A stretch of 64,000 bases of DNA from Candidatus Uhrbacteria bacterium (GTDB taxonomy: Bacteria; Patescibacteriota; Patescibacteriia; UBA9934; GWF2-40-263). The DNA lies in assembly GCA_016205975.1 (NCBI GenBank), contig JACQSK010000007.1, positions 5,328-69,327 on the forward strand, given 5' to 3'. The notes below the pieces were generated by a model, which had not been told where the DNA came from, searched no databases, and was given only the letters and a program-made list of their open reading frames with translations. The number at the start of each line of letters is the position of its first letter. Position 1 is the stretch's first letter. Position numbers and translations under genes: made by a program. Below are positions 2,945 to 12,208 of the stretch, one piece after another.

Positions 2945-3742
2945 TCAGGCCGCGGTGGCCTTCTTCTGGTACGCGTCGGTGCCAGGCCAGCCGAGCTCCT
3001 CGAGCGCCAGGACGCTCCGCGCCCAGGACGAGCGCACCCAGATGTGCTCGCTCATCGTGGGAACCTCTCGACCCACGTAGAGGTCGAGGCGGTCGAGCTC
3101 GAGGCCACGCAGCTCCTCGGGTCGGTCCTGCCTCTGGAGGTGGTTCACCGCGACGAGTCGCTCGTTGTTGGTCACCAGGCAGAACATGATCTCACCCTCA
3201 TGCAGGCACTGGTACTTGTCCCAGACCTGCTGAGGCGTGAGGTTCACCATTTTGGCGATGGTGGCGAGACGACACCAGCGGCGGCGCGTGCTGCGCCCGG
3301 TCGTCTCCTTGACCATGTAGGGCGTGCGACCCACGAGGCGTTCGAGAACGCCGTTCTTGATCTGGCGGGCGCCCTGGAAGAGGCTCGTGTCGGGCCACTC
3401 GTCGTAGCCATCCGTCATGCCGGAGATCGTCATGAGACCGAAGGGCTTGGTCGCCCAGCGGACGAAGATGGTCGGGTTGTGCTGGTCGCCCTGGACGGCC
3501 GTGAGGAGGTGGATCTCGTTGCCCGCCTCGCGGATGGCCTGCCGGCGCTCGAACGAGTACGGCTCGGGGTTGCCGTCCTCGTCGTAGGCGTGCGACTGAC
3601 GGTGGGGCACGGGCCAGATGTAGGTGATCAGCGCCCAGGCTCCCTCGGGGACCTCCTCGCACGCGAGCGTGGTGTCCTCGTAGATCGGCTCACGCTCGTC
3701 TTCGTAGGTGCCGCTGTGCCGGCTGATCTTGATGCGGAGCAT
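2945..3742 (-). CDS. Hypothetical protein (accessory)
   Basis: AGGAGG SD before ATG 3742; strongly GC3-biased codons; no recognised motif. Confidence 0.7.
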   Translation of the reverse strand: MLRIKISRHSGTYEDEREPIYEDTTLACEEVPEGAWALITYIWPVPHRQSHAYDEDGNPEPYSFERRQAIREAGNEIHLLTAVQGDQHNPTIFVRWATKPFGLMTISGMTDGYDEWPDTSLFQGARQIKNGVLERLVGRTPYMVKETTGRSTRRRWCRLATIAKMVNLTPQQVWDKYQCLHEGEIMFCLVTNNERLVAVNHLQRQDRPEELRGLELDRLDLYVGREVPTMSEHIWVRSSWARSVLALEELGWPGTDAYQKKATAA

Positions 3743-3796
3743 CGTTCCTCCTTGTCCCGAGTGCCCATGTTGGGCTCTCATTCAATGGACTAAGCG

Positions 3797-6572: not shown

Positions 6573-6797
6573 TTAGCTGGTGATCACGATGAGCCAGGCC
6601 AGCCCCTTGTTGAGAAGCCAGTCGAGCCCGCCGAAGAACGCGGCGAGAATAACGCACAGGACGATGACCAGGACCGAGTACTTGGTGGTCTCCTGGCGGC
6701 TGGGCCAGGCGACCTTGCGCAGCTCCTCGCGCGCCTCCTTCACGTAGCGCAGGAGCCAGACGAGAGGGTTGGCTCTCTTTTGGGCTTGGGTGTTCAT
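6573..6797 (-). CDS. secE: Preprotein translocase SecE
   Basis: ELRKVAWPSRQE plus a TM helix; upstream of nusG. Confidence 0.95.
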   Translation of the reverse strand: MNTQAQKRANPLVWLLRYVKEAREELRKVAWPSRQETTKYSVLVIVLCVILAAFFGGLDWLLNKGLAWLIVITS

Positions 6798-6897: not shown

Positions 6898-6930
6898 AAA
6901 AGAAAAATCCCGCTGGGAGGTGAGCGGGAT
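6898..6930 (-). terminator. Intrinsic terminator after the Tas-like gene
   Basis: ATCCCGCT/AGCGGGAT stem then TTTTCTTTT on the minus strand. Confidence 0.75.
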
Positions 6931-6937
6931 CGTTGGT

Positions 6938-8445
6938 CTAGGCCATGCGCCTGCGGGCGGCCTCGAGCTTCTGGCGGCGAGCGAGCTCGCTCCACTGGTC
7001 GGCGAGCCACTCGACGAACTTCGTCACCGTGCGCCACAGGGCCATCTTGTGGATGTGTCCGTCGGTGTAGCGCTTCTTGCCTTCCACCTCGATCACCTCG
7101 GGGTGGGCGACGTGGAGCTTCGCCTTGTACTCGAGCAGGAGGCGGCCCCAGTGTGTGCGGTCGCTCTGCCGGTTGAACTGGTCCGCGAGCAGATACAGCG
7201 CCTGCCTCGCGTCCGGGTGCCAGTTGGCGGGCTGGCCTGCACGGCGGCGGGGGAACTCCCATCCTCCATGACGGCTACGCCACAGAACATCTTGAGCTTG
7301 GCCTGGGTGGCCTTGCGCGCGCGGTGCCGGAGCTTGGAGCGCTCCTCATGGCACGCGACGGCACGCTCGAGCAGGGCGGCCTGCTCCGGTCGCCTGTTCT
7401 TCGCGCACCAGGAGGCGACGCGTTGCAGGGTCTGGAACTCGCTGTTCCCCAGCTGGACGAAGCGCTTGAGTTCCTGGAACCTCGCCTCGCGCTCCAGCCG
7501 GGTGGACTCCTCGTAGAGGCTGTCCATCCGCGCCTGGTTGGGTTCGACCATGAACCGCTCGATCCCGCCGATCGCGGAGATGAGCCTTCCCGCGAGCGCG
7601 GGGCCGATGCCCGAGACATCCTCCAAGATGTGCTGCCACACCTGGGTGTTCTTCACGGCGCGGTCGAGCTCCTTGAACCGCGCGGCCTCCTCTTCCTGGA
7701 GCGCCAGGTAGATGCGGTCGTTGGCCTTGAACTCGTTGAACGCGCGTTCGATGTCGAGCTCGGCGAAGTCCTGCTCGGCGCACAGCACCTGGCCCACGAG
7801 GGCTCGGTGCAGGCGCTGTTCGCAGGCGATACGACCCTTCATGGCGTCGATGCGCAGAGCCTGGCACTCGCGCACCCAGATGATGCGCCGTGTGTTCACC
7901 GTCACCTCGTGGAAGAGGCTGGGCTTGTCGCGCGCGAGCTGCGCCAACAGCTTGGCGTCCTCGTCCTTCTCGCCGTGGCGTTCCCGCTTGAGCTCGAAGG
8001 GCGGAAGGCGCAGGACCTTGGCACTCACGCGCTCACCCTGCTTGGACAGGGCGAAGGCGAGCCGGTCTCCCGAGCCGCCGAGCGACATCCCGACGACGTC
8101 ACCGCGCTGGAGGCCGTCGAAGGTGATGGGAACCTTGGTGGCGACCTGGGTCTTGCCGTCCTGCTCGCGCAGGTGCACCTGGTTGAGCTTCTCGACGTCC
8201 TCGGTCTTCTTCACCGTACGCCACTTCACGTGACGTGGGTTGAAGTCTGCGAGGCTGTCTTCGGGCGCGATGTCACGCCAGGCGATGGGGAAGCGACCGC
8301 GCACCCAGTCGAGCTCGGCGTTGTCGTCCTCCAGCTCGTAGGTGTCCTCACGCCCGCCGTCGATGACGGTCATCTGGGTGGGACGCGCTTCTCCTTCCTT
8401 GGTCTTCTTGACCCGGTGTCGGACACCGATGAACCTCTTGTTCAC
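6938..8445 (-). pseudogene. IS110/Nop-domain TIGR-associated (Tas-like) protein, ~502 aa if a 1-nt frameshift near 7258 is corrected
   Basis: GTG start with AGAGGGAG SD; RuvC-like FIGVRH..VGMSLGG..KDEDAKLLAQL; coiled coil; VSGIGPALAGRLISAIGGIERF..KLKMFCGV; -1 frame continues FPRRRAGQPANWHPDARQALYLLADQF..HIHKMALWRTVTKFVEWL to TAG 6938, then a terminator. Confidence 0.8.
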
Positions 8446-8500: not shown

Positions 8501-8528
8501 ACCCTAGCAGTTTGGTCGACTATGTCAA
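8501..8528 (-). promoter_or_regulatory. Promoter of the Tas-like gene
   Basis: TTGACA-16-TAGGGT with TG extension. Confidence 0.5.
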
Positions 8529-8575: not shown

Positions 8576-8992
8576 GCCATGCAACTGCTCCGACGTCGTT
8601 GACATCGTCATGTGCGCACAGCGGGAATCGGGCAGCCACACGGTCGTCTCTCGACAGCGTATTGTTCGCCCGATGGGGGAGAGTGACATTCGTCCATTCG
8701 TCTTTCGACAAGGCCGACAGAGTCACTCGGGGAGTCGTGCACGCTGGTCCTGGTCTCTCGACAGTATCAATATCGCACGACGATGGCTCGACATTCATCT
8801 GATCGTCTTTCGACGGGTGGCGAGTCGTCGAGCTGAGAATCGGGCACTCCATAGTCCGTCTTTCGACAGCCGACCATGCGCCCGATGGGGAGGGTGACAC
8901 GCGAGCAATCATCTTTCGACAATCTCCCATTCGTCACTCGGGGAGCCGAGCAGACCCTCGGTCGTCTCTCAACACGACCTCCTGTGCTCGGC
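8576..8992 (-). ncRNA. Stem-loop TIGR-like guide array, 8 units with paired 9-nt spacers
   Basis: Units start (plus) at 8576, 8627, 8681, 8734, 8786, 8839, 8892, 8945: 7-bp stem, A, 9 nt, TCGTCT(T/C)TCGACA, 9 nt, 2 nt, complementary 7-bp stem; 4-6-nt linkers. Confidence 0.9.
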
Positions 8993-8998
8993 GAATCT

Positions 8999-9027
8999 TT
9001 ACTACCCCAAATCAAAGACGGGGTCAA
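8999..9027 (-). promoter_or_regulatory. Candidate promoter for the array
   Basis: TTGACC-17-TAGTAA; predicted start (~8992) coincides with the first base of the first stem. Confidence 0.5.
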
Positions 9028-9084
9028 GCCCCGCCTTGTGTGAACTACGCGGGGGCAAGCCCTCGCGGTTTACGCTTCGCTTGC

Positions 9085-11109
9085 CTAAACATCCAAGTTC
9101 TTCACTGTCTTGGCATGTGTCTGGATGAACCGTTTACGTGGGGCGACGTCGGCGCCCATGAGGACATCGAACACGTCGTCGGCGCGCTCAGCGTCTTCGA
9201 TCGTGACCTGTTTCATCACGCGCGTTGTTGGATCCATCGTGGTGGTCCACAGCTGGTCTGGATTCATTTCTCCCAAACCTTTGTAGCGCTGGATGTTCAC
9301 CTTGACGCCCGAGACCTCCATTTCCTCGGTCTCACTGGCGCCCTCCGTTGTCTCGGGCACTTCCTCCTTGAGTTCTTTTTTATTTTTGCCCGCGTCCTTC
9401 AGGAGTTCCTCCACGACGGTCAGTTTTTCCTCGTCCGAATACGCATAGCGGAAATTCTTTCCGACGTTCACGCGGAAGAGCGGTGGCTGGGCAATGTAGA
9501 TATGGCCTTGGTGGATCAGCTCGGGGAAGTAGCGGAAGAACAGCGTGAGCAGAAGCGTGCGGATGTGCGCGCCGTCCACGTCCGCGTCCGTCATGATGAC
9601 GATTTTGTGGTAACGCAACGTCGTCAGGTCGAAGCCCTCGCCGATGTTGGTCCCCAGCGCGATCACGAGCGACTTAATCTCGTTATTGGAGAGCATCTTA
9701 TCCAGACGCGCGCGCTCCACGTTTAAGATCTTGCCTTTCAGCGGGAGGATCGCCTGATGTTCCCGGTCGCGGCCTTGTTTGGCGCTGCCGCCAGCTGACT
9801 CGCCCTCGACGATGAAGATCTCCGAGTCGCCAGGATTTTTACTTGAGCAGTCGGCGAGCTTGCCAGGCAGAGTCAAGCCTTCCATGGCGCCTTTGCGCAG
9901 CACGGTGTCGCGAGCGGCTCGAGCGGCGCTTCGGGCTTGCGCGGCCAGCAAGCACTTGCCGATGATGGCCTCGGCGTCGGCCGGGTGTTCTTCCAAATAG
10001 ATTTTGAACGCCTCGCCGAACACGGACTCCACGGCCGTGCGTGCCTCGGGGTTGCCGAGCTTGGCCTTGGTCTGTCCCTCAAACTGTGGTTCCTTGATCT
10101 TCACGCTGATGACGGCCGTGAGTCCCTCGCGCACGTCGTCGCCGGTCAGGTTCTGATCTTTTTCCTTCAAGAGTCCCTTGCCGCGCGCGTAGTTGTTGAG
10201 CTCGCGCGTCACGGCCGTGCGGAAACCGGAGAGATGCGTGCCGCCTTCGGGGTTGGTGATGTTGTTGGCAAAGCAGTGGACCGACTCGTAATACTCGCCC
10301 GTGTACTGGAGCCCCACCTCGACCTCGACGTCCGTGGCCTCGTCGAGCTTGTGCACGTAGAAAACGTTTTTGTGCTTGGCTTCCTTGCCGTGGTTGATGT
10401 GGCGCACATAGCTCGCCACGCCGCCTTCAAAATAAAAAGCGTACACGCTAGGGAGGGCTTCGTCGCGCGCGTCCTGGACGATCAGTTTGATTCCCTTGGT
10501 GAGGTAGGCCTGCTGGCGCAAGTGGTCGAGGATCGTCTTGAGGCTGAACTCGGTTGTCTCAAAAATGGTTTCGTCCGGATGAAACGTGATGATCGTGCCG
10601 GTGCCCGTGGCTTTCCCAACGGGTTTGACGCGGCCCTTGGGGATGCCGCGCGCATATTCTTGCATCCACAGTTTCCCCTCGCGCTTCACTTCGGCCTTGA
10701 GATACGTGGAGAGTGCGTTCACCACCGATACGCCCACGCCGTGCAAGCCACCGGAGACTTTGTAGCCGCCGTCGCCGAACTTTCCTCCGGCATGCAACTT
10801 GGTGAGCACGAGCTCGAGCGCCGAGACTTTGTGCTGGGGATGGATGTCCACCGGGATGCCGCGGCCGTGGTCTTCCACGCTCACGAGGTTGCCAGGCAAC
10901 AGGCGCAGCGTGATTTCTTTCCCGTGTCCGGCCATAGCCTCGTCAAACGAGTTGTCCATGACCTCCCAGATGAGGTGATGGAGTCCCTGCGGGCCGGTGG
11001 TGCCGATGTACATGCCCGGCCGCCGGCGCACGGGGTCCAGTCCTTCCAGGACCGTGATCTGTTTGGCGCCGTAGGCACTCTCGGCCTTCTTTGTTTTTTT
11101 GGATGCCAT
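9085..11109 (-). CDS. gyrB: DNA gyrase subunit B
   Basis: VRRRPGMYIG, LHAGGKF, SGGLHGVG, VEGESAGG, PLKGKILN, MTDADVDG, QRYKGLGEM. Confidence 0.95.
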   Translation of the reverse strand: MASKKTKKAESAYGAKQITVLEGLDPVRRRPGMYIGTTGPQGLHHLIWEVMDNSFDEAMAGHGKEITLRLLPGNLVSVEDHGRGIPVDIHPQHKVSALELVLTKLHAGGKFGDGGYKVSGGLHGVGVSVVNALSTYLKAEVKREGKLWMQEYARGIPKGRVKPVGKATGTGTIITFHPDETIFETTEFSLKTILDHLRQQAYLTKGIKLIVQDARDEALPSVYAFYFEGGVASYVRHINHGKEAKHKNVFYVHKLDEATDVEVEVGLQYTGEYYESVHCFANNITNPEGGTHLSGFRTAVTRELNNYARGKGLLKEKDQNLTGDDVREGLTAVISVKIKEPQFEGQTKAKLGNPEARTAVESVFGEAFKIYLEEHPADAEAIIGKCLLAAQARSAARAARDTVLRKGAMEGLTLPGKLADCSSKNPGDSEIFIVEGESAGGSAKQGRDREHQAILPLKGKILNVERARLDKMLSNNEIKSLVIALGTNIGEGFDLTTLRYHKIVIMTDADVDGAHIRTLLLTLFFRYFPELIHQGHIYIAQPPLFRVNVGKNFRYAYSDEEKLTVVEELLKDAGKNKKELKEEVPETTEGASETEEMEVSGVKVNIQRYKGLGEMNPDQLWTTTMDPTTRVMKQVTIEDAERADDVFDVLMGADVAPRKRFIQTHAKTVKNLDV

Positions 11110-11284
11110 ATCGAAGACCAGTGTACCTGAGAGGCAGGATTTCTGGAAGACTCGCCAAGGGACAGGGAGGGTGACAAAATTTCGTATATACGAAAAAAAG
11201 TGACCACGGCTCTCCGGCCATTCGTGTGCTGGATGTGGGGCGGACGCAGCGCGGGTGGCGCATCGTGTGGTATACTTTTTTATT

Positions 11285-12208
11285 ATGGAGAATGGAGGTC
11301 TGCTTTTGGAAGAAGAAAAGAAGGCCCGCCGATTGTATCGGTTGAGTTTGTGGTGGGTGGAGCATCGCGCTGTGCTGCGGCGCATCGGCTACGGGGCGTT
11401 CATGGCTGTGGACGCGCTCGTCCTTGCGTTCGCTCTTTTTCATCTGTTGGACGCGTTTGCGTTTAGTTACGATCGCGAGCAGCGCGCGATTTTCGCGATG
11501 GTCACGCAGGGGCAGTCAGATTTGCGCGCGTACACGGAGGCGAACAAGGCGAGCGACCTTGAGAGCACGCCCGCGCGGATCATTTCCATCGGGAGCGATC
11601 GCTATGACCTGTACGCGACGCTCGTGAATCCCAACGACGACTGGTGGGCTGAGTTCACCTACGCGTTCACCACGGACGCAGGAGCCACGGAAACGGCCAC
11701 GGGGTTCATCTTGCCCGGGGAAGAAAAACCGATCGTGGAGTTTGCCTATGCGTCCAGCGTCCCCATGAGCGCCGCCGAGCTTGTCGTCGATGGCATCACC
11801 TGGCATCGTGTGGATCATCAGATGATCGACGACTGGGGAGTGTTTGCGCAAGAGCACCTGAATCTCGTCATCGAAGACGCGCAGTTCACCAAGCAGACCG
11901 ACGGCAACGGCGAGGCGTACGGGCGCTCGAGTTTCACCGTCATGAACAAGACCGCGTTCAGTTATTACGAGCCGACATTCTATGTGCTCTTGAAACGCGG
12001 TTCCTCTGTGGTGGGCGTCAACCGCGCCACGCTCTCCGAGCTTGAGAGCGGCGAGCAAGCCTCGGTCGCGCTCAACTGGTTTGGCACGCTGCCCTCGGTG
12101 AGCGAGGTTGCCGTGGTGCCGGAAATCAACCTGTTCGATCTGTCTGTTTACAAACCGTTAGAGGGGGAGAACACGCGTGACACTCGTACGCGCGTCTTTC
12201 GCCGATGA
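11285..12208 (+). CDS. Hypothetical membrane-anchored protein
   Basis: N-terminal TM segment, beta-rich domains; overlaps the rodA start. Confidence 0.75.
   Translation: MENGGLLLEEEKKARRLYRLSLWWVEHRAVLRRIGYGAFMAVDALVLAFALFHLLDAFAFSYDREQRAIFAMVTQGQSDLRAYTEANKASDLESTPARIISIGSDRYDLYATLVNPNDDWWAEFTYAFTTDAGATETATGFILPGEEKPIVEFAYASSVPMSAAELVVDGITWHRVDHQMIDDWGVFAQEHLNLVIEDAQFTKQTDGNGEAYGRSSFTVMNKTAFSYYEPTFYVLLKRGSSVVGVNRATLSELESGEQASVALNWFGTLPSVSEVAVVPEINLFDLSVYKPLEGENTRDTRTRVFRR

Follow-up and report, generated by a model that had tools for sequence, protein, structure and literature searches.

Between the housekeeping genes gyrB and secE of a groundwater bacterium, the window (the whole 64 000-nucleotide stretch of Candidatus Uhrbacteria contig JACQSK010000007.1 that was analysed) encodes a copy of TasR with eight predicted guide RNAs nearby. 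An initial annotation, made from the sequence alone, had described the protein as a non-cutting RNA-guided binder or repressor that is distinct from nuclease TasR/TasH and from Nop-only TasA and was perhaps domesticated by its host. The locus raises the question of what this protein is, whether it still works and whether its place between two housekeeping genes makes it part of the host's own regulation. With good probability, the locus holds a nuclease-dead stem-loop TasR gene, accompanied by its own eight-unit array, that a frameshift has likely left non-functional; an intact version would be an RNA-guided dimer that binds DNA and, without cleaving it, likely prevents transcription. Directly observed in this work are the fold, the loss of the catalytic acids, the two insertions, the array, the frameshift and the patchiness of the distribution. 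The features are collected in Table 1.

Table 1. Features of the tas locus and its flanks (window coordinates)
Feature	Coordinates	Strand	Remarks
secE, downstream flank; then nusG, rplK, rplA	6573..6797	-	secE presumed from its sequence features
Terminator-like hairpin directly after tasR	6906..6931	-
tasR 3' part (106 aa)	6938..7258	-	Other frame, stop-free: FPRRR...NW loop and terminal Nop helices
Frameshift	7256..7260 (~7258)	-	One base fewer than intact relatives
tasR 5' part (395 aa)	7261..8445	-	Dead RuvC, coiled coil, start of Nop C-terminal domain; 82% identical to intact 502-aa P0002
Helical insertion in Nop C-terminal domain	7300..7551	-	84 aa (aa 299–382), between F298 and K383
RuvC-fold domain (aa 1–180)	7906..8445	-	R9/S121 at catalytic positions 1–2, K160/D163 at 3–4
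Beta-rich RuvC insertion (~65 aa)	8110..8304	-	About aa 48–112, between strand 3/helix and strand 4 of the model
Candidate tasR promoter	8501..8528	-	TTGACA-16-TAGGGT; by eye, not called by promoter scan
Stem-loop TIGR array upstream of tasR	8576..8992	-	Eight units, period 52–54 nt
Candidate array promoter	8999..9027	-	TTGACC-17-TAGTAA, ends 7 nt before first stem; by eye, weak, not called by scan
gyrB, upstream flank	9085..11385	-	Pfam on orthologues

Fold and family of the protein

The tasR reading frame opens at a GTG at 8445 on the minus strand and holds every motif on which the initial annotation was built (FIGVRH, VGMSLGG and GEKDEDA). Structural comparisons were performed with an AlphaFold2 model (pLDDT 92.8) of the intact orthologue P0002 (502 aa, 82% identical). 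The top Foldseek match of this model was TaTasR 9MTY (E = 4.4e-10), on which it superposed with Z = 20.0 and an r.m.s.d. of 4.6 over 284 aligned residues; IS621 was the second-best fold match (Z = 17.9) and TasH gave Z = 15.1. Residues 1–180 of the model were aligned with RuvC 4LD0 (Z = 10.6, r.m.s.d. 2.9, 111 aligned), which places a RuvC fold at the N-terminus, and the Nop domain (coiled coil plus C-terminal domain), supported by the 9MTY match of the model, is encoded in the window split over two frames. As to two further marks of the clade treated below, the lack of a C-terminal Y/H processing loop and a CUU at the stem base, the C-terminus of the model is a single helix (461–501), and the stem bases in the array are CUC/AUU, not CUU.

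The family comprises 352 clusters at 50% identity (E up to 1e-30); its named homologues come mainly from CPR bacteria, the nearest from Candidatus Uhrbacteria. A CPR clade of TasR with a predicted inactive RuvC domain, large Nop insertions and stem arrays is described by Faure et al. (2025; PMC12045711). The window protein is a member of this CPR (Patescibacteria) clade of stem-loop TasR and is catalytically dead, so that the initial annotation's separation of it from TasR has to be given up.

CsTasR from Candidatus Staskawiczbacteria (547 aa; Xu et al., 2026, bioRxiv 10.64898/2026.09.09.750476) was compared by its published description, its sequence and structure being unreleased. Cryo-EM of CsTasR revealed R8/V126 at the catalytic positions, an insert of ~80 residues in RuvC and a C-terminal insert that wraps the stem; the protein does not cleave and represses reversibly. 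Like it, the window protein (R9/S121) combines an arginine at the first catalytic position with a non-acidic residue at the second, has one large insertion after RuvC strand 3 and before strand 4 and another in the C-terminal domain, is accompanied by stem-loop guides whose spacers are separated by a hairpin, and belongs to a CPR host. It differs from CsTasR in being shorter (~502 aa if intact) and frameshifted, in a loop hairpin of about 3 bp instead of 5, in its 6-bp outer stems and in having the array upstream only. Both CsTasR and PateTasR form a 2:1:1 protein:tigRNA:DNA complex with 9+9-nt pairing to opposite strands and without cleavage (Xu et al., 2026). Stem-loop guides and DNA binding without cleavage (predicted for the window system) are also common to the window system, PateTasR and the TasA proteins MbTasA and PlTasA (PlTasA being among the subjects of Guan et al., 2026, 10.64898/2026.08.11.744272), repression having been shown for MbTasA; PateTasR is compact (329 aa), however, and TasA is devoid of a RuvC domain. 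[quoted passage not shown]

By this comparison the gene is to be classed as an ordinary member of the published family of RNA-guided, DNA-binding, non-cutting transcription blockers. The central proposal of a non-cutting RNA-guided binder or repressor stands for the family, where it has been shown for the CPR relative CsTasR, and probably does not hold for this copy, the frameshift of which was overlooked. RNA-guided repression by dead CPR TasR proteins with large inserts is already published; our literature search yielded nothing on the Uhrbacteria locus itself, and the supplementary tables of the family papers may list it or its relatives. P0002, the intact orthologue, might be used as another compact PAM-free repressor.

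Active site and insertions

R9 (in FIGVRH; codon 8419–8421) and S121 (in VGMSLGG; codon 8083–8085) were assigned to catalytic positions by strand order in the P0002 model, not by atom-level overlay; K160–D163 of GEKDEDA is encoded at 7957–7968, again on the minus strand. No D or E was found in the R9 or the S121 column (0/111 and 0/139 homologues, 250 in total), and because of this the loss of the RuvC acids is, judging from the alignments, a family feature and not chance. The R9 column holds R in 86 of the 111 homologues. V, S, I and A alternate in the S121 column of the same 111, V being the commonest; the expected conservation of the R/S pair was borne out in that neither column is ever acidic and R is the majority residue, but not for the serine itself. 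D163 is kept in 107 of the 111 and K160 in 99, and acids persist near the old site, D127 being D in 103/111 and position 161 D or E in 90/111. A weak HMM alignment to TaTasR 9MTY (7.7 bits) pairs D163 with the final Asp of that protein and K160 with an Asp three positions before it, which agrees with the earlier view that only the last D of GEKDEDA is in register.

These persisting acids could be taken for the remains of an active site in which D127, D161 and D163 serve a residual nuclease, a nickase or an IS110-like recombinase. The IS110/IS621 recombinase (8WT6, 8WT9) does have the same overall fold (Z = 17.5–17.9), and PF01548 and PF02371 match weakly, with scores that fall below the Pfam cut-offs. 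Such an activity is nevertheless hardly credible. The window protein is without the DEDD tetrad and the catalytic Ser loop; no conserved Ser-Gly (or Ser) occurs in the loop after FCGV, where we take the IS110 catalytic-serine motif to lie, among 44 aligned sequences, as had been noted for the single protein. The locus carries a guide array instead of one bridge RNA and is present in a single copy in the genome. The strand-1 Asp, the loss of which kills TaTasR (D11A; PMC12045711), is missing in 250 of 250 homologues, and no cleavage is seen with CsTasR and PateTasR.

Both proposed insertions were located. The long insert after the first RuvC strands corresponds to the beta-rich insertion of the model, and the helical insert, put at ~70 aa in the initial annotation, exists as 84 residues (~80 net) that lie in the Nop C-terminal domain, outside the interval 7900..8445 to which it had been assigned. 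The segment matching this helical insert has at most 15 residues in 73 of 111 homologues and at least 60 in 35. The homologue alignment further contains the invariant surface motifs RHRxK and GGSGD, and every domain of tasR has a dN/dS below 1 (0.13–0.71).

Invariant surface motifs and selection on a dead domain would also be expected if the dead RuvC and the insertions recruited a partner, in the way that fibrillarin is brought in by Nop5 through its dead RuvC, and the intact system did more than block; Faure et al. (2025; PMC12045711) propose the CPR clade as a possible step to box C/D snoRNPs. We regard this as very doubtful: the cassette in the window has no partner gene, the inserts of CsTasR contact DNA and tigRNA, and repression by CsTasR needs no other CPR protein. 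The preferred reading of the intact protein remains that of a blocker of transcription.

Frameshift in the window copy

At the frameshift site six relatives carry one base more. After ...KLKMFCGVAVMED the tasR frame enters 55 unrelated residues and stops at 7093 (a 450-aa product), the conserved continuation EFPRRR...NWHPDARQALYLL...GHIHKMALWRT sitting in another frame at 6941–7258; an intact tas reading frame is thus absent from the window locus. Contigs of runs X1, X3, X5 and X6 cross the site with no indel listed; these runs represent two studies and at most three samples, X1/X3 possibly being the source of the window itself and X5/X6 one sample of the other study. Because contigs of two studies span the site without a gap, an assembly error was rejected. 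No second tas gene was found in the genome of the window (G000; 938 kb, 94% complete); L153 and L154, considered as complementing copies, were weak matches inside unrelated genes and were discarded.

The 450-aa product is likely to be unable to load a guide, because in the solved relatives boxes C/D are bound by the terminal helices of Nop, which this product lacks. For TaTIGR, a nonsense mutation ended tigRNA accumulation (PMC12045711). The window's tasR is probably pseudogenised and this copy is most likely inactive. The break looks recent from the sequence, because the 3' frame is stop-free and has a dN/dS of 0.13–0.31 against four relatives.

The same clean frame and low dN/dS could instead mean that ribosomal or transcriptional frameshifting keeps the copy active, or that the break acts as an on/off switch; the break is moreover common to two strain types and the array is largely intact. 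We consider this quite improbable. By eye, no canonical slippery heptamer or long homopolymer occurs at the break, a slip in the five-C run would alter the conserved F of FPRRR, and the relatives are damaged at other places and in other ways; the clean 3' frame is explained by a recent break. The strain differences of X5/X6 include eight substitutions, five of them at third codon positions, clustered in the C-terminal insert (window 7377–7451), a cluster that looks like a recombined patch.

tigRNA array and proposed mechanism

Each unit of the array opens and closes with the two strands of a 6-bp stem. Between them lie two half-guides separated by a hairpin loop, and each half-guide consists of a box C (mostly CGN), a 9-nt spacer (A in the first, B in the second) and a box D (UG). 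The loop between the spacers has 8 nt, which with both boxes makes 13 nt (>12 nt) by our own reading of the counting convention, and a GAAA/GAGA hairpin is present in seven of the eight units. The array is the only cluster of at least three units in the 938-kb genome, and its folding (z = −2.2) beats 99 of 100 shuffles. An Rfam scan of the window gave no match. Comparable arrays were detected in 78 of 136 fetched loci, many of them redundant; loci with the ~80-aa insert have 6-bp stems and a 53-nt period (eight loci, mostly kin), and those without it 8-bp stems and a 64-nt period (38 loci). A site like the candidate tasR promoter is present in G002, the same-genus relative with an intact copy, and is deleted in G001.

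Two minor observations concern array elements. In divergent Tas relatives (L009/L015/L023 of G044 and L048 of G372) box C is CUN, not CGN. After gyrB, a short hairpin region (window 9041–9080) is matched by many unrelated contigs in four runs and is perhaps a common terminator or repeat.

By homology with the solved relatives, an intact system would work as follows. The array would be transcribed and cut into stem-loop guides of ~50 nt; a TasR dimer would hold one guide through boxes C/D, and spacers A and B of the guide would base-pair with one strand each of an 18-bp site. With the DNA gripped by the dead RuvC domain and the insert, the complex would block RNA polymerase. The intact protein may act as a roadblock on foreign DNA and not on host genes.

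Genomic distribution and guide targets

A tas match was found in seven of 36 family genomes and in 37 of 401 class genomes. Besides the window, the cassette lies between gyrB and secE/nusG in G001, G002, G003, G027, L101 and L053/L054 (seven lineages with the window); none of nusG, secE and gyrB occurs in the flanks of 93 of 104 fetched loci. No tas gene was found between gyrB and secE in the five relatives checked (G004, G005, G035, G007 and G021), and the two genes are only ~95–130 bp apart in G004, which belongs to the same genus, G005 and G035. Three of the four same-genus copies at gyrB–secE are damaged independently and only that of G002 is intact: the G003 gene is frameshifted near residue 200 and the G001 gene has lost its candidate promoter and its first ~41 codons. 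In the wider family six of 96 full-length loci were flagged, only G003 and G445 being clearly frameshifted besides the window; single stops were flagged in each of L083–L085, and a TAA reported for G021 was not confirmed as internal and G021 was not counted as broken.

Guide targets were defined as spacer A plus the reverse complement of spacer B, a geometry that fits the C-5 rule and the 8-nt 3' overhang given in PMC12045711. The eight guides of the window, searched against G000 in five geometries, had no site with 0–1 mismatch, and sites with two mismatches occurred at the level of a mis-paired control. With 59 guides (window plus five relatives) against G000, two-mismatch sites numbered 0.14 per guide and 0.09 in the control, and 553 unique guides against G000 and the fetched flanks gave 54 matches at two mismatches versus 62 in the control. 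A guide common to G001–G003 had no site with up to two mismatches in five genomes. No foreign target was found either, one guide having been scanned in viral collections. Three exact and two near matches at the guides' own loci coincided with the unit from which the guide had been called and were discarded as artefacts. Viral matches of the guide common to G001–G003, which is not a guide of the window, comprised five loci with four unrelated sequences, one in a recA-like frame, and were set aside as about chance for an 18-mer, a level that is a rough estimate rather than a control scan and holds for that one guide. Natural targets and spacer acquisition are stated to be unknown by Xu et al. 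(2026). Foreign mobile DNA may be the target, because self-targets were not found and spacers turn over.

A domesticated host regulator, a dead TasR repressing its host's own genes from a fixed chromosomal site, would explain the gyrB–secE position common to seven related lineages, the purifying selection on tasR and the guide that is identical in G001, G002 and G003; in E. coli, moreover, silencing of a chromosomal gene by CsTasR is possible. We consider it unlikely. Neither the guides of the window nor the sets of 59 and 553 guides hit the genome above control level, the conserved guide had no site within two mismatches in five genomes, the cassette is missing from 29 of 36 family genomes and three of the four same-genus copies at this site are damaged. 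The domestication suggested in the initial annotation is not supported, given the patchy presence, the site empty in all five relatives checked, the repeated damage and self-targets that do not exceed chance. Neither the missing IS ends nor the missing SG loop, both of which had been noted with it, is informative on this point, as both are expected of any Tas. A slot between housekeeping genes need not mean domestication when the copies in it are broken differently and close relatives have it unoccupied.

We propose instead that the cassette arrived at the gyrB–secE junction of one Uhrbacteria lineage as an accessory element and is repeatedly being lost. Some evidence runs counter to this: the fixed address and the dN/dS of 0.13–0.71 indicate vertical inheritance under selection, most copies in the family are intact, and selection on a fixed target would equally give one guide identical in three species.

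Guide variation between strains and species

One guide is identical in all 18 spacer bases in G001, G002 and G003 (L018:9383, L016:4753 and L020:7451, respectively), two of these three hosts having a damaged tas gene, and a second agrees in 17 of 18 between G001 and G003. Most other guides differ among the species though the stems recur. The guide at L018:9545 (G001) reappears at L020:7557 (G003) with spacers A and B swapped, one mismatch per spacer and a nearly identical loop; such a guide would have the same target, read on the opposite strand. This was one case in 1,770 pairs (59 guides) and the only swap in 203,760 pairs, where it was seen twice through a duplicate record.

An alternative contig of X5/X6, of depth about 3 and from one sample, has ten differences within 8714–8767, eight in spacers, one in box C and one in box D. 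Spacers make up 19 of these 54 positions (binomial p of about 0.005 if the changes were independent, which they are not); over 8714–8816, nine of 11 array differences are in spacers. The spacer-concentrated strain allele, the recurring stems with different spacers and the A/B-swapped guide lend support to a reading in which the gyrB–secE arrays of Uhrbacteria record guide renewal, spacers being rewritten in place within a fixed stem scaffold and half-guides being able to swap. We offer it tentatively, as having a small chance of being right, and the guide variants give starting points without establishing a mechanism. The orthologous arrays at this single chromosomal position, with guides that are shared, diverged or A/B-swapped, are a resource for asking how TIGR spacers arise and what their targets are.

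Neighbouring and related loci

The tandem paralogues at 1431–2153 and 2150–2854 of the window have weak matches to HTH/sigma-70 region 4 and were not found in the fetched flanks of related loci; the ORF at 2945–3781 (278 aa) matched no Pfam family. G003, the genome with a frameshifted TasR, carries a second, Nop-only TasA-like gene of 216 aa (L151:6426–7076; hhalign 94.7% to the family), accompanied by a short array of the same unit type as in the window and then by a ParE-like toxin–antitoxin pair. In GyrB of G002 (L016:6750–10169) and of G001 (L018:9693–13175) an intein with a weak HNH match occupies the Toprim domain; GyrB of the window has none. G002 also has an extra gene between gyrB and the array (L016:5166–6734), which to judge by its motifs resembles an RtcB RNA ligase.
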